A stretch of 34,419 bases of DNA from a virus (Duplodnaviria; Heunggongvirae; Uroviricota; Caudoviricetes), in IMG/VR virus record IMGVR_UViG_2671180847_000009, one strand, 5' to 3'. A program made the position numbers and the translations under genes. The notes beneath the pieces are model-generated. The model was given only the letters and a program-made list of their open reading frames with translations, did not search any database and was not told the DNA's origin. Positions 1 to 34,419 of this stretch are shown piece by piece; the first letter of the stretch is position 1, and each line of letters opens with the position of its first letter.

Positions 1-243
1 ATGTATACCTATAAAATGATTCAGGTGCCGCCGAATATTTCTGTAAAGGCAAAAGATAATAAAGCGGGGGTAGCTGCTGCATATCTTCAGAATGTTGTTA
101 ATGAACAGGCGGCGGATGGCTGGGAATTTCAACGGGTTGATACGATTGGTATAGAAGAGCAGCCGGGGTGTTTCGGTGGCGGAAAGGCGCAGTTTTTTCA
201 ATACTATGTGATTACTTTTAGAAAAAAAGTATCAGATGCTTAA
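1..243 (+). CDS. Small hypothetical protein (80 aa), DUF4177-like; possibly host gene, start may lie upstream of window
   Basis: ORF from position 1; GWEF motif resembles DUF4177 small proteins; stop overlaps start of next gene (operon-like). Family assignment from memory only. Confidence 0.35.
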   Translation: MYTYKMIQVPPNISVKAKDNKAGVAAAYLQNVVNEQAADGWEFQRVDTIGIEEQPGCFGGGKAQFFQYYVITFRKKVSDA

Positions 244-469
244 ATGGCTTAGTATACGTCTGATTCTTTATTATCGTGCTCATGCGCCAGCCAGCATTCG
301 TAACAGATGTCGTTATACTCCAAGCTGTTCGGCTTACACTTTGGTGTCAATAAGGCGCTATGGCTTTTTTGAAGGCTGGCGATTAGGATTGAGCCGGATT
401 TATCGCTGTCGTCCGCCTAATGGTGGTGCAGATTACCCTCCTCATATTTGTAAATGTCGCAAATCGTGA
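236..469 (+). CDS. YidD-family (haemolytic-domain, membrane protein insertion efficiency factor-like) small protein
   Basis: 77-aa ORF; C-R-Y-T-P-S-C-S-x-Y and C-R/H-P-x-x-G-G-x-D-x-P-P motifs align with E. coli YidD (CRFxPTCSxY ... CHPLHPGGDDPVPP). Confidence 0.55.
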   Translation: MLKWLSIRLILYYRAHAPASIRNRCRYTPSCSAYTLVSIRRYGFFEGWRLGLSRIYRCRPPNGGADYPPHICKCRKS

Positions 470-520: not shown

Positions 521-1004
521 GGGATGTGTATAGGGTGCCTTATCGGCCTTACCCTGGCAACCGATTGACGGGGAAGTTGCCTTCCCCGTCGCGGTTTTCT
601 TACTGTCTACATTGTAAGAACGCCGCAAACTCCGCTCCCCAGAAGCTCATCCGTATCTCACACAGTGAACCGTGTAGCATCCAGATGATGAGGATTGCCG
701 TTACGCAGAACGTAATGGCCGTAAGCGATTTTTGCGACATAGCGCTTGCTCCTTTTTCGGGGAGGCGCTAACCTACGACTTGCGAAGGTTGTATGGCTAG
801 GGCCTCGGGTTAACGTTAAAGTTGACTCGGGGCCTTTCCACATTCGGCCTTCGGGTATTCCCTCCAGCCATCAGCCGAAAGGCACCCGCGCGAATTCTAG
901 CCTGGTTTTTTCCCTTGTTTCAATCCGTTGAGACTTATCAGCCTTCTGATGTAAAATTCCCGACCGCAGACATTATTCAGTCACGCATTTGATACATGCT
1001 TCCG

Positions 1005-22364: not shown

Positions 22365-23391
22365 AAAGAAAAAATACCCCGTGTTACACGATGGCGTGGC
22401 AAAAAAAACAGCCAGCAAAATGACGTTTATTGAATTTGGTGACCCAGAACCGGTCGCTGCATGGGGCTGTTATTACGGCTCGCTCTGGGATGGCTATAAC
22501 GGCTGGTACACGCCGCCCATTGAGCGCATGGATCTCGCCATGTTGTCCAATATCGCACCGTATCACGGCGCGGTATTGCGTGCGCGCGTCAATATGATCA
22601 TGCAGGGTTTTCGGGGTGGTGGTGGTATGACACACGCCGCCATGGCGGCAGCAGTAACCAATCTGGTGATATTCGGGGATATGGGGTTGCTTAAAGTGCG
22701 CAATGGCTTCGGTCGAGTGGTGCGCCTGCATACGTTACCTTCTCTGTACCTGCGGCGTAACAACGAGGGTGGCACGGTGATTGTGCAGGCGGCACTGGAA
22801 GATCTCGTTTACCCGCCAGGCGAAGTGGTGTTCGTGGCCATTTATGACCCGCAACAGCAGGTTTACGGTGTCCCGGATTATATTCACGGGATGGAATCCG
22901 CCATGCTGAATGTGGATGCCACCCGCTTTCGCCGCAAGTATTACAAGAACGGCGCACATCTTGGTTATATCCTGTATTCCACTGACCCGGATATGGATCC
23001 CGAGCTCGAGGCGGAATTCCGTAAAAAGATAGAGGCGTCAAAAGGGGCGGGCAATTTTAAATCCATGTTTATCAATATACCGGGCGGAGACAAAGAAGGC
23101 GTTAAGGTGATCCCTATCGGGGATTCAGGTACAAAAGATGAGTTCCTGAATATAAAAACCATCAGTGCCCAGGATCAGCTCGTTGCGCACCGTTTCCCAC
23201 CCGGACTTGCCGGCATCATTCCCGCAAATACGGCCGGGCTTGGTGATCCACTGAAATCCCGCGAGGCATATTACAGGGATGAGGTTATCCCGATGCGCCG
23301 CCTGATTATGGAGGGGATCAACAGCGACCCGGATATCAGACGACTGGGGGAGGTGAAATTTATTCTTGATTTTGATGAACCCATGGAGTGA
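22357..23391 (+). CDS. Q: Portal (capsid portal vertex) protein, P2 gpQ-like
   Basis: 344 aa; start overlaps P stop (ATGA); gpQ-family sequence character. Confidence 0.85.
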   Translation: MSKKKKYPVLHDGVAKKTASKMTFIEFGDPEPVAAWGCYYGSLWDGYNGWYTPPIERMDLAMLSNIAPYHGAVLRARVNMIMQGFRGGGGMTHAAMAAAVTNLVIFGDMGLLKVRNGFGRVVRLHTLPSLYLRRNNEGGTVIVQAALEDLVYPPGEVVFVAIYDPQQQVYGVPDYIHGMESAMLNVDATRFRRKYYKNGAHLGYILYSTDPDMDPELEAEFRKKIEASKGAGNFKSMFINIPGGDKEGVKVIPIGDSGTKDEFLNIKTISAQDQLVAHRFPPGLAGIIPANTAGLGDPLKSREAYYRDEVIPMRRLIMEGINSDPDIRRLGEVKFILDFDEPME

Positions 23392-23456
23392 TGTGCGGTA
23401 TGGGGAAAGAGCGGGTAAAATCGGTGGCAGTAAAACGCTGTTCTGGGAGGTGGAAA
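23392..23456. other. Candidate cos (cohesive end) region
   Basis: G-rich segment ggtatggggaaagagcgggtaaaatcggtggc just past Q, where P2 places cos; shares GGGGAAAG with the recalled P2 cos core. Exact cut sites not determinable. Confidence 0.3.
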
Positions 23457-23714
23457 ATGCGCAGACAGAAAGCGCGATGTCATTGCTGCGGTGCACATGC
23501 AGTGATTGAGAAAACAGCCTGGAAAACCGATCAGTTTGCTGATGTGTATTACCGTTGCACCCGTCTCGAGTGCGGACATACCTGGGTGATGAATCTGACC
23601 TACTCGCACACACTGGTGCCCAGCGGGCTGGAGAATGGTGTGTTAAAGCTGTTGATTGAGCGGATGCGTCCGGAAGAAAAACAAATGGCTCTGGAGTTGT
23701 TGCAGGCCGGATAG
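23457..23714 (+). CDS. ogr: Ogr/Delta-type zinc-finger transcriptional activator homologue (85 aa)
   Basis: C-x2-C...Y-x-R-C-x4-C-x-x-T-W spacing matches P2 Ogr (C-x2-C-x22-C-x4-C); start at third ATG (23457) with GGGAGG RBS. Confidence 0.6.
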   Translation: MRRQKARCHCCGAHAVIEKTAWKTDQFADVYYRCTRLECGHTWVMNLTYSHTLVPSGLENGVLKLLIERMRPEEKQMALELLQAG

Positions 23715-23736
23715 CTGACGCGCTTCGCTTGTCCAA

Positions 23737-23784
23737 CCCGGAACGGGCGCACAAAGAATTTGCGCACCCGTTCCGGGTTTTCTT
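23737..23784. terminator. Strong hairpin terminator between convergent ogr-like and Rrf2 genes
   Basis: 11-bp stem cccggaacggg/cccgttccggg (23737-23747 / 23767-23777) followed by ttttctt. Confidence 0.6.
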
Positions 23785-24142
23785 ATTCAATGACAGACAA
23801 CTGATAATTTGTGTCTTCCTGCAGGCTGGTTAAAGAAATATTATCCAGTGCAGCCAGAATAACGTGCTGTGTATATAATCCGGAACATTTCATTGCCCGG
23901 ACAATATCACCAACACTGTAATTTTCTTTTGTCGGGATATATCCACCACCCGGGCCGCGTGTGGCTTTTACCAGGCTACTTTCCCGTAAATATCTGAATA
24001 TTTGCTCCAGATATGACAGTGAAACGGTTTCTTTGCTTAATTGCCGGAGCGAGATTGGCTTTCCGGTGTACTGTTTCACAAATTTAATCATTACCATAAC
24101 TGCAACTGATGCACGCTGGCTTCCGGAATTATCTTTCATCAT
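23783..24142 (-). CDS. Rrf2-family transcriptional regulator (119 aa, non-Fe-S type)
   Basis: S-L-S-Y-L-E-Q-I-F-x-x-L-R...R-G-P-G-G-G-Y matches the Rrf2/IscR HTH signature; only one Cys, so no cluster ligands; start at MMKDNS with GGAAG RBS. Confidence 0.7.
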   Translation of the reverse strand: MMKDNSGSQRASVAVMVMIKFVKQYTGKPISLRQLSKETVSLSYLEQIFRYLRESSLVKATRGPGGGYIPTKENYSVGDIVRAMKCSGLYTQHVILAALDNISLTSLQEDTNYQLSVIE

Positions 24143-24153
24143 GATTACTTCCA

Positions 24154-24441
24154 TTAATGGCATAAATTGATGGAGCGGGTCAGTGAATAAAGAGGCAATA
24201 CATTCCATCCCTTAGAGCGCCAGCTGTCTGCAACATCTTTACTTCTTGTTATCGCCGGTATTCCAATAGGATTATTTGCGTGCATCCATACCACTGGCTC
24301 TGCTTCCAGTGATGCAAGTGCGATTTCCAGTGCGATTAACATATTGTGATCGTCTTCATCAAGACCGAACGGGATGTCTTCGCGCCACGATTTAAACTCT
24401 GTGATTTTACGTTGTAACCATTCTTTGGTAATGGTGGACAT
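24154..24441 (-). CDS. Hypothetical protein (95 aa), unknown function
   Basis: Start MSTITKEW at 24441 with AGGAG RBS at spacing 5; ends 11 nt before the Rrf2 start. Confidence 0.45.
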   Translation of the reverse strand: MSTITKEWLQRKITEFKSWREDIPFGLDEDDHNMLIALEIALASLEAEPVVWMHANNPIGIPAITRSKDVADSWRSKGWNVLPLYSLTRSINLCH

Positions 24442-24455
24442 AGTTACTCCTGTTT

Positions 24456-24770
24456 TCACTTCGGGAAAAACGCCTGAATATTCTTTTTCACCTGCTGCAT
24501 ATGGGGGGCGCTGTCTGCTGCTGGTTGCGCCGGTTTTTCAGGCTGTACTGGTAGCGGTGGCATCCGTATTTCGTCTTCTGACCATTCTGCCAGCGAATAC
24601 GCCAACGCGGGGGTGCGTTTTATAAGAGCCAGTCCGGCCAGAAAAGCCGCGCGTTGTGCGCGGCTGCGTTCGGAGGCTGGCAGGCTGTCGAGGTAACTGC
24701 ACGCCTCCCGTTCGCTCTTGACGACGGCGGGCTTCAGATAGAAACTTATCCGTCTGGTTGGTGTCGTCAT
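24456..24770 (-). CDS. parR: ParR/StbB-like partition adaptor (104 aa)
   Basis: Start MTTPTRR (24770) 5 nt after parM stop; segment ISFYLKP...LDSLPASERSRAQRAAFLAGLAL resembles R1 ParR (IAFKLNP...LDSIPQGERSRLNRAALTAGLAL, recalled). Confidence 0.5.
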   Translation of the reverse strand: MTTPTRRISFYLKPAVVKSEREACSYLDSLPASERSRAQRAAFLAGLALIKRTPALAYSLAEWSEDEIRMPPLPVQPEKPAQPAADSAPHMQQVKKNIQAFFPK

Positions 24771-24774
24771 TGAT

Positions 24775-25734
24775 TTACTCCTTGTCCATTGCGTACAGCC
24801 CATTAACCAGAGCAAACTGTGGCACCCCGTCCGCGATGAAAGTCGCATTAACTCCGCAGGCTTCGCGGATAGCGGGTGCCACAATCTCCGCCCCTCCACC
24901 GACAACCATCACCCGCCCGTAACCCGAAAAACCCGCCAGCGCGCGGATCACGCGTTGTTTCAGTGTTTCTTCCTTTTCACGAATAACCGCCATCAGGCTG
25001 GCGTAATGCGCGTCATTGTGGATGTGCTGGCGCAACCAGGCTTCATCATGGCGATGTTCGATAATGGTATTGGCGATGTGGTGACTGGTACGCATACCGT
25101 TGGTGGCCATCACCGACAGCACGGCATCGGCCATCAGGGAAACGCCTACGTGTGGATCGCAAAACACCTGGCTGATACCTGCCAGTTGTCCCTGAACCTT
25201 TGCCACATCCAGCGTGGTTCCGCCCAAATCCACAATCAGCAGGGATTCAAACGGACTCATGTCAGCCAGTGCTTTAAAGCCAGCCGGAATGGATTCAGGC
25301 ATAACCCGTACATTACGGATAGTGAATGCTTCGCCGTTCTGGTATTCCACCGGGCGCATAACGTTTGCTTTTTTGCGGTTGATGTTGGCCATGTCCGGCT
25401 GTGCGTTTGTGTCGAAATACTCGCTCAGTGGCAGGGTGACAACCACATCCACCTCCTGTGGCGTGATGCCTGATTTGACCAGCGCATGATGAATGGCAAT
25501 GACATTCACATCGCTGTACTGGTATTGCGTGTCGGTCGTCTGGACAAAGCGATCGCTGACCGGATCAAAACCATAGCGCACGCCATCAAGCATGTAGTTC
25601 GCGGGCTGCGTGCCACCGAACGGCGCAGACCATTCCGACTTGAAGCTGTTCGGGCTGATGGCGTTGCGGCGTTCGCCGTTCTCAGTCCATGCCAGCTTGA
25701 TGTTGGTGGAGCCGTCGTCGATACAAATTTTCAT
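24775..25734 (-). CDS. parM: ParM/StbA actin-like segregation ATPase (319 aa)
   Basis: N-terminus MKICIDDGSTNIKLAW...ISPNSFK...YSDVNVIAIHHAL...LLIVDLGGTTLD...VMVVGGGAE parallels plasmid R1 ParM (MLVFIDDGSTNIKLQW..., recalled) across the ASKHA phosphate and adenosine motifs. Confidence 0.7.
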   Translation of the reverse strand: MKICIDDGSTNIKLAWTENGERRNAISPNSFKSEWSAPFGGTQPANYMLDGVRYGFDPVSDRFVQTTDTQYQYSDVNVIAIHHALVKSGITPQEVDVVVTLPLSEYFDTNAQPDMANINRKKANVMRPVEYQNGEAFTIRNVRVMPESIPAGFKALADMSPFESLLIVDLGGTTLDVAKVQGQLAGISQVFCDPHVGVSLMADAVLSVMATNGMRTSHHIANTIIEHRHDEAWLRQHIHNDAHYASLMAVIREKEETLKQRVIRALAGFSGYGRVMVVGGGAEIVAPAIREACGVNATFIADGVPQFALVNGLYAMDKE

Positions 25735-25771
25735 GTCGATTTTCCTTATGTTGATTAATTAATCGGCTACA

Positions 25772-25877
25772 GGATTTTTAAATCCCGTTTTCGCCTGTTT
25801 TGTGCGCGCTTCATATATCGCGGCGCGTTTTTTGCTCATTTACGGGATTTGTGAATCCCGTTTTTGTCTGTTTTTTG
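25772..25877. repeat. Two ~33-bp direct repeats, each with an internal GGATTT/AAATCC inverted repeat (candidate parC-like centromere/operator)
   Basis: Copy 1 at 25772-25804 (GGATTTTTAAATCCCGTTTTCGCCTGTTTTGTG), copy 2 at 25844-25877 (GGGATTTGTGAATCCCGTTTTTGTCTGTTTTTTG), about 28/33 identical; copy 1 lies just upstream of parM, copy 2 inside the 3' end of gene A. Confidence 0.4.
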
Positions 25878-28633
25878 TTTCCACTGGTCAGGCCACTCCG
25901 CAGCAGGTCTGCTTTGCGGCGGGCGCGTTCAGTGGTTTCACTGATTCTCTGTTCGTGCTCTGCGTCGCGGATGGCGCGCAGCATGTCAGAAAGCACGGTA
26001 ACGGGTGTTTTCATGGTGTTCTGGTCTTGCTGAAGTGTGGATGCCAGGCGTGCGGCGGCTTCAGGGTCTGATGCCCCTAGTTGTTCCAGATAGCTGGCGA
26101 CCGGGTTATGGCGGATCTCCGTGCTGCTTACGCCGTGGTTACGGCTCAGGCGTTGCCAGAGCTGCGTGATTCGGCTGTCCGGGCGGGGATCCGGTTTGCG
26201 TACAATTTCAAATCCCTGCGGTGCAATGATGCTGCCGTCAACGTACAGGCTGCCGCCCCGTAACAGGTGCTGCATCTGCTGTTCACCGATATGCAGGCCG
26301 AGAGATTCGGCAGACTTCCGCCATTCTTTAGCGAGTAATTCGTGGTTATCAGGCAAAGGCCGCTGCTGTTTGCGGCTCTGTGTCCAGGTCTGCATTTCAT
26401 CACTGCTGTTTTTTGCCTGTTTGTCACGCAGCGAACGCATCAGCGCCCGGCGTTCGTGCCGTTTCAGTGAGCGCATCCATTCATCCACATCAACGCCGTC
26501 AGGAAGCTGCGGCCACGGTGCTGGCCGTTCTTCCGGCTGTTCTGTCCCGTTGTTGTCCGTTTCCTGTACACGGGGACAGTTATTGCCACGAGTCCAAGGG
26601 GCGGCAGGGCCGCCCTGAAGGTCAAAACCATTTTCGTGGGCGTTGTCTTCTGGTTCTGGTTTACGTCTTACCAACTTCCAGTTATCCGGATGCGTGCACA
26701 CACGGGAGGATTCCCCGATGAGTGGTGACCAGATCCCGTAAATCTGTACGCTCTGTTCGCCGTAATCGTTCAGCTCATCTGCGAGGTCGTAGGCGGTGCG
26801 AATCAGGTAGTCCTTGCGTGGAACAAGCACGCCACCCTGTTTTTCAATGTAGGTGGCAAAACACCCGGCATCGGCGGCAGCGAGTACCGCATCCATTGCA
26901 TCATCTTTCAGCCGTTGCGGGCCTTCCGGATTGCGTGCCATCTGGCTGGCAAGGCGGCGCAGTTCACGCCACACCTGACGGGAGGGGATGCCAAAGAACT
27001 GGAACTGACGGACCCGGTGAAGGCGCGCCCAGCCGATGGCGCGCTCCACGCTCTCGGCCATTGATTTTCCGGTTTCGTGGTCAACGCGTGGCTTGCCCGT
27101 TTTCGGGTCGATGCCATCCACGGCGCGGCTGTCCAGGTTCTTTCCGATGTAGGTGGCGATGTAGCTGGTTGGTGTGCCTTTTGAGCCGTCGACATACTCC
27201 GCCTTAAAACGCGGAGTTATGTCATCGCCCAGCTCGTGGCGGTCCTCCTGAATGGCAATATCGCAGACGTGGGACACGATGGTTTCAATCTCGTCCGGAT
27301 GTGCAAAGACCATCATATGCCAGTGCACAGTGCCGTCATGGTGAGGCTCCACCGTGCGGATGCCATACCAGCGCAGGCCGTCGCGGTTCAGTTTTTTGCG
27401 GACCGCCGCAAAAAACGTGTTAACCAGGTAATCGCTGGAGTCGCGCATGGTGGCCCCGTTCCATTTGGGGTTCGGATGACCGTTCTCCGTTGTTGCGTGG
27501 TATTTTGACGGGCAGGTGACGGTCAGAAACACCGCTCTGTCGCCACGGGCTTCGGCCAGAAGTTCCAGTCCCTTCATGGTGGCCATCATTTCTGCCTTAC
27601 GGTGAACCGGGTTACTTACTCCCGCGTAATACACCGTCTCGAGATCAATCGTGAACCCGTCTTCATTTTCCAGCATGAAACTTTTCAGGAAATCGCGTGT
27701 TTTCTCGCGCTGTGCGCGAAACTCGCTTAACGCGTCCTGGCTCAGATAGGGCGATGTTTTTCTGGAAACCAGACAGGCGGCGCGGAGTTGTTCTTCTCTC
27801 CACTCGCAACGTAACAACCACAGTTTGCGTTTCCACCATTCCGCACAGGTCAGGCGAAGGATTGCGCCCGGCAGCAGCTCCGTGTCTGGTTCGTTTCTCC
27901 GGTCTTTGTCTGTTGTCAGTGTGTCATAATGCGGCGGCGTGACGTGCAGGTGTAACGCCATGCGAGCCAGCATCTGATATGCCTTCAGTGCCACCTCCAT
28001 GGTCAGCTCGCCATCGGTCGCGCCAAAGCCATCGCAGAGTGTTTCGAAGGTGCTGCTGAACATCGCCGCCGTCATGGTGGCCAGCGTCTGTATCTGGTGT
28101 TTGTTGAGCTGCGGCAGGTAAAGCAAATCGTCCAGGCGTTCGCGTCCGGCAAGGGAGCGATACCCCTGTGTCAGCCAGCGGCTGTCGGTGCGATCCAGAC
28201 GTTCGAATATTTTGCGCAGGGTTCCGCGTGCATAGCGTTCCGCCTGCCAACTCTTTTTGCCTTTCCGGCGATCGGCTTCCTGTTTTTTGCGCAGGAAGGA
28301 GAGGTGGCGAATAAGCGGATCGCGCAGATAGGATGGCAGCAGGCGCAGCGAGGCCATGGCTTCATCCACCGCACCGCGTGCCTGTTTTCTGGCTTCTCTG
28401 GCCAGTGTGATGGTTTTGTCCTGTTTTTCCTGTGCGTCCAGGCTTTTATTAATCAGGTTGCCCAGCGGTGTGGCGGAGAACGCCGCATCAGCCATTTCCT
28501 GGCGGCGCTCGTTCTCTGCCCGGTAGGCATCCAGCCAGGAGGAAAGTGCGGATTCAGGAGCGGGGATCTCCGTTCCTTCACGCCCCACTGCGTGGCGCGG
28601 TTGTTGCCAGTCCCTGATGTACTCTGTCGTCAT
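25811..28633 (-). CDS. A: Replication initiation endonuclease, P2 gpA-like (rolling-circle Rep), 940 aa
   Basis: HUH motif in TVEPHHDGTVHWHMMVF and catalytic-Tyr region GTPTSYIATYIGK; located where P2 gene A lies relative to cox and Q. Confidence 0.8.
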   Translation of the reverse strand: MTTEYIRDWQQPRHAVGREGTEIPAPESALSSWLDAYRAENERRQEMADAAFSATPLGNLINKSLDAQEKQDKTITLAREARKQARGAVDEAMASLRLLPSYLRDPLIRHLSFLRKKQEADRRKGKKSWQAERYARGTLRKIFERLDRTDSRWLTQGYRSLAGRERLDDLLYLPQLNKHQIQTLATMTAAMFSSTFETLCDGFGATDGELTMEVALKAYQMLARMALHLHVTPPHYDTLTTDKDRRNEPDTELLPGAILRLTCAEWWKRKLWLLRCEWREEQLRAACLVSRKTSPYLSQDALSEFRAQREKTRDFLKSFMLENEDGFTIDLETVYYAGVSNPVHRKAEMMATMKGLELLAEARGDRAVFLTVTCPSKYHATTENGHPNPKWNGATMRDSSDYLVNTFFAAVRKKLNRDGLRWYGIRTVEPHHDGTVHWHMMVFAHPDEIETIVSHVCDIAIQEDRHELGDDITPRFKAEYVDGSKGTPTSYIATYIGKNLDSRAVDGIDPKTGKPRVDHETGKSMAESVERAIGWARLHRVRQFQFFGIPSRQVWRELRRLASQMARNPEGPQRLKDDAMDAVLAAADAGCFATYIEKQGGVLVPRKDYLIRTAYDLADELNDYGEQSVQIYGIWSPLIGESSRVCTHPDNWKLVRRKPEPEDNAHENGFDLQGGPAAPWTRGNNCPRVQETDNNGTEQPEERPAPWPQLPDGVDVDEWMRSLKRHERRALMRSLRDKQAKNSSDEMQTWTQSRKQQRPLPDNHELLAKEWRKSAESLGLHIGEQQMQHLLRGGSLYVDGSIIAPQGFEIVRKPDPRPDSRITQLWQRLSRNHGVSSTEIRHNPVASYLEQLGASDPEAAARLASTLQQDQNTMKTPVTVLSDMLRAIRDAEHEQRISETTERARRKADLLRSGLTSGNKKQTKTGFTNPVNEQKTRRDI

Positions 28634-29308: not shown

Positions 29309-29628
29309 GATATGTGGCCTCTTGTAGTAAGTTGTGAAAACTCACCATCCAGAGGTTCCAAGCTCGGGGTGGTGAGACGTACAGGGTTGGAACTACCGGC
29401 TACAAGAGATCCCGGCCCGACCGAAATCGGCCCCGTACGCCCCACCATAATTCGTGTGCGAAAAAGACGTGGCAATACAGTTCGCACAAAAAAACCGCTG
29501 GCGCGGTTGTGCGCTCTTGTAGTCTGCGGGGTTCCAATCCCGGCACCCGTTTTATGAGGTGCAGCGGAAATGTAACCTGACTGATTGCGGCATGGCAAGC
29601 GGTTTTTTTGTGTGTGCATAGTGGTTAC
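29309..29628 (-). promoter_or_regulatory. Structured 320-bp intergenic element inside the early operon (terminator/attenuator-like hairpins, possible promoter or small RNA)
   Basis: No credible ORF; minus-strand RNA contains hairpin CCGC-GCCA-GCGG followed by U7 (plus 29488-29506) flanked by mutually exclusive stems CGCACAA/TTGTGCG and GTGCGAA/TTCGCAC; further long-range complementarity CTCTTGTAG/CTACAAGAG (29320-29328/29401-29409). Confidence 0.3.
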
Positions 29629-33357: not shown

Positions 33358-33423
33358 CGGTTCATCAGGCATTTATTTCCCAGAGCTGTGATCAAGATGA
33401 TGTTTTCATTGGAGGGCTTCCTT

Positions 33424-34419
33424 ATGTCGATTAAGAAGCTCGCTAATGGCAAATTTTGTGTGGACGTGCGGCCTGCTGGATCAGAAGGAAAGAGATTCAG
33501 GCGGCGATTTGATACTCGTGGTGAGGCTGTTTTGTATGAGCGTCATGTATTGCAGCATTACCACGACAAAGACTGGGTTGATAAGCCAACAGAACGGCGG
33601 TCGCTGAGGGAGCTGCTGGATTGTTGGTGGTTGTATCACGGTAAAAATCATCCTTACGGTGCGATGGAGCGAGTGCGTATTGCTGCGGTCATTAGTGATC
33701 TTGAAAGTATTAATGTTACACGCAGTGATCAACTTACTCGTAAAAACATAATTAATTATCGGTTATTGTTGCTTAACCGCGGAATAAAACAATCCACGGT
33801 TAATCGTTATTGCGCAATGATGAGTGGTTTTTTCACAAAACTAATTGACGCAGAGGAATATTCTGGGGCTAATCCGTTTCATGATGTGAAAAAACTTAAT
33901 ATCAAACAGCCTGAAATGGCTTATTTGTATCATGAAGATATTCCACGATTACTGGAGTTGTTATCAGGTGATGAATTAAAAGCCGTCTTGTTGTGTTTGG
34001 CAACAGGTGGAAGATGGGGTGAAGTTGCAAATATCAAGGGGGAGCATGTTATTAGCGGCAAAGTCATTTTTATGGAAACAAAAAATGGGAAGCGTCGCGT
34101 TATACCTATATCGTCAGAACTGGAGTGCATGATTAAAACAAAGGCCACTGGTCGTTTAATTTATCCAAGTTATTCTGCTGTCAGAACGGCTATCAGAAAG
34201 GTGAGGCCCGATCTTCCTGAAGGGCAGTCGATACATGTTTTACGGCATACCTTTGCTACTCACTTCATGATTAATGGTGGGAATATCATCACGTTGCAGA
34301 GAATACTTGGACATAGCACTATTCAGCAGACGATGACTTATGCCCATTTTGCACCGGATTATCTGCAGGATGCTGTGCGCTTTAATCCTGTGGCTGAGTT
34401 GTCCAGATATTGCCCATAA
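33424..34419 (+). CDS. int: Tyrosine integrase, P2 Int-like (331 aa)
   Basis: Start MSIKKLANGKF with GGAGGG RBS; near colinear with P2 Int (MAIKKLDDGRYEVDIRP...) including HxLRHTFATHFMINGGxIITLQRILGH and catalytic Tyr in MTYAHFAP; stop at window end. Confidence 0.85.
   Translation: MSIKKLANGKFCVDVRPAGSEGKRFRRRFDTRGEAVLYERHVLQHYHDKDWVDKPTERRSLRELLDCWWLYHGKNHPYGAMERVRIAAVISDLESINVTRSDQLTRKNIINYRLLLLNRGIKQSTVNRYCAMMSGFFTKLIDAEEYSGANPFHDVKKLNIKQPEMAYLYHEDIPRLLELLSGDELKAVLLCLATGGRWGEVANIKGEHVISGKVIFMETKNGKRRVIPISSELECMIKTKATGRLIYPSYSAVRTAIRKVRPDLPEGQSIHVLRHTFATHFMINGGNIITLQRILGHSTIQQTMTYAHFAPDYLQDAVRFNPVAELSRYCP

Follow-up and report, generated by a model that had tools for sequence, protein, structure and literature searches.

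In the par and stb loci of plasmids R1 and NR1, parM is followed by parR; the parC site of R1 consists of 10 direct 11-bp iterons with the promoter embedded in it, and the host is a theta-replicating, low-copy plasmid. Actin-type partition pairs have also been described in integrated elements. The srpMRC locus of the SXT/R391 ICEs has a centromere of four repeats in the 5' region of srpM, upstream of the gene; it stabilizes the excised rolling-circle form of the element as well as a pBeloBAC11 delta-sop BAC, and its expression is tied to SetCD and int (PMC4489591). In the Corynebacterium glutamicum prophage CGP3, efficient replication of the phage DNA depends on the AlpAC/alpS system: its genes are switched on early, phage DNA is carried along by the filaments, and its deletion halves the amount of circular phage DNA (PMC4446434); the repeats bound by AlpA lie upstream of the operon (PMC4446434, PMC5539076). 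Phage D6, a P1-like plasmid prophage of 91 kb that does not depend on integration, carries the StbA/StbB pair (MF356679), and ParM proteins encoded on chromosomes have been reported as functional polymers (PMC12270681).

The window (the whole stretch of DNA analysed here, 34,419 nucleotides) is a P88-like Peduoviridae prophage of the genus Xuanwuvirus. Its gene order matches that of phage P88, in which int, C and cox are followed, further along, by A (940 aa), ParM, a partition protein, small variable genes, portal and terminase. The partition cassette and the genes that frame it in the window are the following:

23783..24441, minus strand: variable cargo slot downstream of parR, with a 95-aa ORF of unknown function and a 141-aa Rrf2-like wHTH protein
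24456..24770, minus strand: parR, a 104-aa adaptor that matches PF10784
24775..25734 (including the stop codon), minus strand: parM, a 319-aa actin-like ATPase
25811..28633, minus strand: gene A, a 940-aa rolling-circle replication endonuclease (Phage_GPA, 1.9e-129), directly upstream of parM
33388-34419, plus strand: tyrosine integrase, at the end of the window

An earlier note on this DNA had placed the pair downstream of replication gene A in a phage that also carries an integrase, and had pointed out that P2 harbors the tin and old genes in the corresponding region; all three statements are correct, the canonical P2 order being A, then Orf91, tin and old, and then cos. The P2 A-type rolling-circle nickase is the sole replication protein of the window, and a theta replicon was not found in it. 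A Hok/Gef ORF is present as well, so that both R1 stability loci, parMR and hok/gef, have homologs in the window. An Rfam scan at gathering thresholds returned no match within or near the cassette.

The predicted ParM protein matched the Pfam domains StbA_N (1.8e-82, residues 1-157) and ParM C-terminal domain (1.3e-68, residues 159-316), and aligned over its full length with R1 ParM (PDB 1mwk; E=9e-93), with which it shares 147 of 315 residues (46.7%). All four nucleotide-binding motifs (DDGSTNIK, MPESIPAG, DLGGTTLD, and GGGAE) are identical to those of R1 ParM, and the phosphate-1, connect, phosphate-2, and adenosine motifs are intact; the protein also matched phrog_691, annotated as 'partition protein' (1.8e-90). 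The NCBIfam ParM equivalog PRK13917 scored 19 bits against a cut-off of 417 bits; since this model describes a different ParM branch, the identity of the window protein rests on the Pfam and PDB matches. At the amino acid level, the window ParM is 100% identical to gp17 of phage P88, and the two genes differ by 14 synonymous and 0 non-synonymous substitutions. Across 83 related loci, with 70 distinct nucleotide alleles, the dN/dS ratio of parM is approximately 0.05; the gene is under strong purifying selection.

The predicted ParR protein matched the Pfam family Plasmid_stab_B (PF10784; 1.9e-24, with a family cut-off of 25 bits), to which the ParR proteins of R1/NR1 and pB171 also belong, and phrog_2515, annotated as 'partition protein' (2.4e-44); its match to the pB171 ParR structure (PDB 2jd3) was weak (E=0.009). 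With the StbA_N match, the possibility that the 319-aa protein lacks any significant HMM match falls away, and the R1-type actin-like ATPase with a ParR-like adaptor that the earlier note had recognized is confirmed by Pfam, PDB, and motif matches far beyond chance. The two genes lie on the minus strand at precisely the coordinates that had been given and are immediately adjacent, as claimed, although 4 nt (TAA-ATCA-ATG) instead of 5 nt separate the start codon of parR from the stop codon of parM; the 4-nt gap recurs in 83 of 83 related loci. An alignment of 38 ParR homologs revealed an invariant RRISFYLKP motif at the N-terminus, then conserved helices, a linker of approximately 30 residues that is hypervariable, and an invariant C-terminal NIxxxFP motif; this tail motif also occurs in the ParR proteins of an IncFII plasmid and of phage-plasmid D6. 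The AlphaFold2 monomer model (mean pLDDT 67.5) predicts helices at residues 20-61, a disordered, low-confidence segment at residues 62-89, and a helix at residues 90-101. The model contains no strand; the N-terminal strand is expected to form only in the dimer. A Foldseek search of this model against the PDB returned nothing meaningful, the query being a monomer model, with a long disordered linker, of a fold that is dimeric. Among the 83 loci, the dN/dS ratio of parR is 0.2-0.3, and both parM and parR are nearly always intact. Two allele classes of parR can be distinguished, a P88 type in 57 loci and the window type in 22 of 79 loci; the window ParR is 57% identical to that of P88. The ParR alleles are thus highly diverse, while ParM is near-invariant.

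The distribution of the cassette follows that of the replication gene next to it. The cassette is present in each of the 14 phage records that have a P88-type A protein, at 94-96% DNA identity and with ParM proteins that are 96-100% identical; P88, Citrobacter phage PhiSM (ParM 99.7% identical), 520873 and P884B11 are among them. Proteins at least 84% identical to the window A were found in exactly these 14 records with ParM; among the remaining Peduoviridae, no A protein exceeds 43.5% identity, and the alignments cover only residues 9-796 of the window A, the C-terminal extension of approximately 140 residues being specific to this lineage. The closest counterparts of the window, P88 (gp17/gp18, NC_026014), PhiSM, 520873, P884B11, and vB_EcoM-569R5, resemble it in site, A type, and upstream palindromes, with ParM proteins that are 99-100% identical; the window differs from the P88 group in its ParR allele class and its downstream cargo. 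Among 5426 complete Escherichia coli genomes, the cassette was detected, at a coverage of at least 80%, in 1278 (approximately 24%), and a P88-type A in 1354; the places occupied by the cassette in these genomes are 1441 chromosomal and 2 plasmid, and there are polylysogens with 2-3 cassettes. A further 203 contigs with the cassette were found in IMG/VR.

Variability begins on the other side of the cassette. From parR to the portal gene, the sequence is hypervariable: among 53 related loci, this stretch is approximately 1 to 3 kb long and its cargo falls into 23 clusters, a PARIS-like AAA/DUF4435 pair and Fic/Phd among them; in the window, the matches of the cargo ORFs are to Pfam Rrf2 (3.9e-13), NCBIfam rrf2_super, and phrog_660/phrog_24072 (unknown function). 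The site equivalent to the tin/old hotspot thus starts downstream of parR and not directly behind A. The suggestion of the earlier note that the cassette is itself cargo at the variable tin/old site is not supported by these distributions, in the 14 phage records as in the E. coli genomes; since the cassette is fixed together with the lineage's own type of A, it is core and not cargo. The earlier note had counted against its own reading a pair that is a common conserved core gene of the lineage with another assigned function; half of this holds, since the pair is such a core gene but has no other function assigned to it. A PADLOC scan returned no family match for ParM or ParR (E<=0.1), nor for the two cargo ORFs, and the cassette is therefore not classed as a defence system.

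The association of the cassette with gene A extends beyond the P88-like phages. The order A, parM, parR, cargo, portal is also found in P2-like prophages of Plesiomonas, Hafnia, Serratia, and Enterobacter, with ParM proteins that are 63, 62, 58, and 54% identical to that of the window, respectively; the ParM homologs of intermediate identity are all located between a Phage_GPA gene and cargo, portal, or terminase genes. The examined ParM proteins with identities of 53% or less belong to plasmids, integrated plasmids, or ICEs, and have Rep3, ParA, umuDC, or TraG/TraU nearby. The comparison with plasmids and P2-like prophages that the earlier note had proposed therefore shows the position to be shared by P2-like prophages of other genera, and the closest plasmid ParM to be approximately 53% identical; the regions upstream of the plasmid par genes contain unrelated repeats. 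In a neighbor-joining tree, the ParM proteins form two phage-context clades with an IncFII plasmid clade between them. Whether captured once or twice, the cassette has stayed in place while ParM diverged by approximately 40%.

Upstream of parM, 76 nt of intergenic DNA separate the gene from the 3' end of A, and this short region, together with the end of A, contains the candidate cis-acting elements:

25743-25747, minus strand: Shine-Dalgarno sequence AAGGA, downstream of the promoter candidate
25754..25782, minus strand: weak sigma-70-like promoter candidate, TTTAAA-17-ATTAAT, 8/12, the best candidate in a custom scan
25769..25788, no strand assigned: proximal 20-bp palindrome, ACAGGATT-TTTA-AATCCCGT, within a 37-nt repeat at 25768-25804; candidate ParR site or operator
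25842..25861, no strand assigned: distal 20-bp perfect palindrome, ACGGGATT-TGTG-AATCCCGT, within a 37-nt repeat at 25841-25877; candidate ParR site

The two palindromes are spaced 73 nt apart within related 37-nt elements, and the distal one falls within the last codons of gene A. The pattern ACGGGATT-N4-AATCCCGT has three matches in the window against 0.14 expected, and none of 100 shuffled sequences reached three. The promoter candidate, at 8/12, falls below the threshold of 9/12 of the standard promoter scan; its -35 element sits within the proximal palindrome. The two-element layout is kept in the cassettes of P88, Plesiomonas, and Hafnia, with a spacing of approximately 71-74 nt in the Plesiomonas and Hafnia relatives, and the ATTAATCAA element of the promoter candidate is kept in both of these despite a ParM identity of approximately 62%. 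In the Serratia/Enterobacter clade, other inverted repeats occur together with another ParR N-terminus (NRK vs. TRR); the co-variation of repeat type and ParR N-terminus, seen in few lineages, is suggestive. Together, the two palindromes form a candidate for a compact parC. An iteron array of the R1 type was found nowhere in the window by tandem-repeat and direct-repeat searches; against the 10 iterons of R1, the candidate centromere of the window comprises only the two 20-bp palindromes, with four half-sites. The putative cis site of the window lies upstream and overlaps a weak promoter candidate, which echoes the embedding of the R1 promoter in parC. As a caveat, conservation within the lineage cannot single out the palindromes, since the whole upstream region, column by column, is uniformly more than 90% conserved; the comparison with distant relatives served this purpose instead. 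On the plus strand the palindromes resemble intrinsic terminators, a character that is not kept in Plesiomonas; on the sense strand, no terminator was predicted between A and parM.

The claim of the earlier note that this arrangement had not been described for P2-like phages was overstated. The pair is annotated as ParM and partition protein in P88 and 13 other phage records (in P88 and its relatives as 'plasmid segregation protein ParM' or 'partition protein'), PGAP names both genes in approximately 1300 E. coli chromosomes, both proteins have PHROG families, and the annotation of phage D6 mentions 'similar to phage P88 StbA'. The PhiSM paper lists the gene in passing, as a 'fitness' gene, and demonstrates the integration of this phage experimentally, its lysogens being integrated (PMC6456863); the P88 paper does not mention the pair. 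A functional study of the cassette was not found in the open-access literature, which misses many subscription papers, and expression data on parMR of the O157 prophage CP-933T were not found in published omics work. The gene annotation is thus known already, as is a cassette of this kind as the partition module of an integrative element.

Compared with the systems described so far, the window shares with R1 and NR1 the order of parM and parR, the ParR family, and the ParM motifs; the R1 replicon is a theta-replicating low-copy plasmid, whereas the host of the window cassette is an integrating, rolling-circle phage. Like srpMRC, the window cassette is an actin-type partition pair in an integrated element, and HUH rolling-circle replication of the excised form is common to both; SrpM, however, is distant from R1 ParM, SrpR has no recognizable domain, and the SXT/R391 elements are conjugative and not viral. 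AlpC and AlpA resemble the window pair as filament former and DNA-binding adaptor of an integrated prophage with adaptor repeats upstream of the operon; in contrast to the window ParM, AlpC belongs to another actin-like family in a Gram-positive host, alpS has 24 repeats, and CGP3 is cryptic. By functional analogy, the window can be placed with srpMRC and AlpAC, as an element with an operon of actin-like ATPase and adaptor, an integrase, and presumptive replication in the excised state. Of the other phages in the collection, D6 alone has a homologous pair; its StbA is 47.8% identical to the window ParM, and its ParR shares the tail motif, yet this plasmid prophage differs from the window in its long upstream stretch with TCTCA-type repeats.

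The replication of P2-type phages proceeds by rolling circle, and monomeric circles are the packaging substrate. We propose that a ParMRC machine would find plasmid-like targets in these monomeric phage circles, and we lean, with some reserve, towards the reading that the pair is a genuine type II cassette in a conserved P88-like replication module that acts on the phage's own circles. ParR dimers would bind the two palindromic elements, which lie on either side of the end of A and overlap a weak parMR promoter; the conserved C-terminal helix of ParR would capture ATP-ParM filaments, and the growing filaments would push or position the copies of the phage's circular genome. These events would take place on extrachromosomal circles after infection or excision, during A-driven rolling-circle replication, and the spreading or segregation of the circles could make replication, packaging, or inheritance more efficient before lysis or integration. 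The precedents for such a role are srpMRC, for excised SXT/R391 ICEs, and AlpAC, for the induced prophage CGP3. Since no sense-strand terminator is predicted between A and parM, transcription of the early operon should read into parMR; we infer the action on extrachromosomal circles from this continuity with A, together with the almost always integrated state of these phages. A promoter of the cassette's own, if active, could give parMR expression in the lysogen. The benefit of parMR may be small, since P2-type phages without it replicate well.

Among the functions that the earlier note had proposed, stable episomal maintenance and interference with plasmids are the less likely ones. For episomal maintenance, parMR, possibly together with hok/gef, would sustain a low-copy episome for generations instead of integration. 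This account draws on the PLSDB entry pZ1323PEC0009-2 of strain Z1323PEC0009 (NZ_CP148288.1), a circular 34,461-bp 'plasmid' that comprises an entire P88-like phage genome, including int, parMR, and hok; a 99.9% identical copy of this phage is integrated in the chromosome of a sister strain. The account is also consistent with the homologs of both R1 stability loci in the window, with the Plesiomonas relative on a phage-sized 32-kb contig, and with the use of a homologous StbAB pair by phage-plasmid D6. However, such a circular contig may stem from phage that had excised and was replicating when the culture was sequenced, and only one of six near-identical PLSDB matches is phage-sized. The predominance of chromosomal over plasmid places in E. 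coli (1441 vs. 2), the integrated state of the PhiSM lysogens (PMC6456863), and the combination of an integrase with a rolling-circle nickase as sole replication protein and no theta replicon found make a facultative plasmid prophage unlikely. A facultative low-copy episomal phase across P88-like and related phages, in which A would replicate the circles, ParMR would partition them, and hok/gef would perhaps guard them, appears quite unlikely; if it exists, the phage would ride through host divisions without integrating, and a common E. coli prophage lineage would be a hidden integrative phage-plasmid hybrid.

The pair might instead work in trans in lysogenic conversion, by interfering with resident ParMRC plasmids or superinfecting phages. 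The cassette adjoins a hypervariable defence hotspot and may have its own weak promoter, and diverse ParR alleles accompany a near-invariant ParM; since the NxxxLFP tail of ParR is also found in the ParR of an IncFII plasmid, cross-binding to plasmid ParM filaments is conceivable. Yet the cassette is fixed together with its type of A and keeps its place in other genera, has no PADLOC match, and is distant from plasmid systems, the closest plasmid ParM being approximately 53% identical and the plasmid upstream repeats unrelated; moreover, ParR has an invariant DNA-reading strand, with a putative matching cis site on the phage itself, and a role of this kind seems very unlikely. Even less probable is a regulatory or vestigial cassette, with ParR serving as an RHH repressor where the early operon ends and ParM being a decaying passenger captured from a plasmid. 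Two operator-like palindromes and no others would be typical of RHH repressor operators, and the promoter candidate overlaps one of them. Decay is excluded by the dN/dS ratio of 0.05; nor would a passenger gene be expected to show such purifying selection, intact ATPase motifs, and full-length ORFs in 83 loci, together with an invariant tail motif of ParR.

For annotation, these results mean that an E. coli chromosomal gene labelled 'Plasmid segregation protein ParM' usually points to a P88-like prophage and not to an integrated plasmid, and that the anti-phage cargo hotspot of the P88-like lineage starts after parR, not after A. O157:H7 and ST131 strains are among the approximately one quarter of complete E. 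coli genomes that carry the cassette in a P2-like prophage. The preferred reading, a partition cassette for the phage's own circles, is directly testable, because both P88 and PhiSM can be induced and plaqued on K-12 and are amenable to engineering. If the cassette moves phage circles, it would combine a very compact candidate centromere with an R1-like ParM for which structures and assays are already in place; it would represent a Gram-negative counterpart, in a fully functional phage, of AlpAC in CGP3, and a viral counterpart of srpMRC.

Between the window and the Escherichia phage P88, the synonymous divergence of parR (24456-24770; dS 0.67 over codons 1-66) is roughly ten times that of the adjacent parM (24775-25734; dS 0.066), and the first 16 parR codons are nearly identical in both phages; this pattern suggests that a recombination junction lies where parR begins and that the ParR allele classes are old and shuffled. 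The product of replication gene A, encoded just upstream of the partition pair, carries a C-terminal extension that is missing from every non-P88-type Peduoviridae A protein and in which no Pfam domain was found (residues ~797-940); the distal of two palindromes upstream of parM, a candidate ParR-binding site, sits in its last codons. The coordinates of this extension and of two neighboring RNAs in the early region are as follows:

25811-26240, minus strand: C-terminal extension of A, ~140 aa, residues ~797-940
29365-29452, minus strand: C4 antisense RNA (Rfam, 79 bits)
29488-29562, minus strand: isrK Hfq-binding RNA (Rfam, 71 bits)

Since the C4 and isrK RNAs adjoin each other, they suggest that this P2-like phage possesses an antisense-controlled antirepressor switch in the style of P1 and P7.

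Both classical stability loci of plasmid R1 have homologs in the window phage, parMR and hok/gef, the latter at the left end:

1-243, plus strand: DUF4177 ORF
236-469, plus strand: YidD-like membrane-insertion-factor ORF (Pfam 8.1e-18)
603-740, minus strand: Hok/Gef-family toxin ORF, 46 aa (Pfam HOK_GEF 4.1e-07)

A Hok/Gef ORF also occurs in the circular record pZ1323PEC0009-2; an Rfam scan detected no Sok RNA at the gathering threshold. The two ORFs adjoining hok (1-469) probably represent morons close to the attachment site. That circular record, listed as a plasmid in PLSDB (NZ_CP148288.1; 34,461 bp; from an E. coli isolate from a cat), consists in its entirety of a complete P88-like phage genome, and strain Z1323HEC0067 carries this phage as a chromosomal prophage with 99.9% identity.

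The region between the portal gene and parR contains the following features:

23388-23714, plus strand: Ogr/Delta zinc-finger ORF, 108 aa (Pfam 1.4e-12; phrog_603)
23735-23779: palindrome, 21-nt arms, 90% complementary, 3-nt loop
within 23783-24441, minus strand: cargo ORF without assigned function, 95 aa (phrog_660)
within 23783-24441, minus strand: Rrf2-like winged-helix protein, 141 aa (phrog_24072)

The Ogr/Delta ORF comes immediately after the portal gene, whose end it overlaps; this placement is unusual compared to P2 ogr. An Ogr_Delta gene likewise adjoins the portal gene in the distantly related Plesiomonas and Hafnia prophages. Located between the convergent cargo genes and this ogr-like gene, the palindrome is likely a bidirectional terminator. 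The slot that houses the cargo genes, downstream of parR, is the real hotspot of the P88-like lineage; in related cassette-bearing loci it is occupied by a PARIS-like AAA and DUF4435 pair (L055), Fic/Phd (L013), HicAB (L090), or a KAP NTPase (L091).
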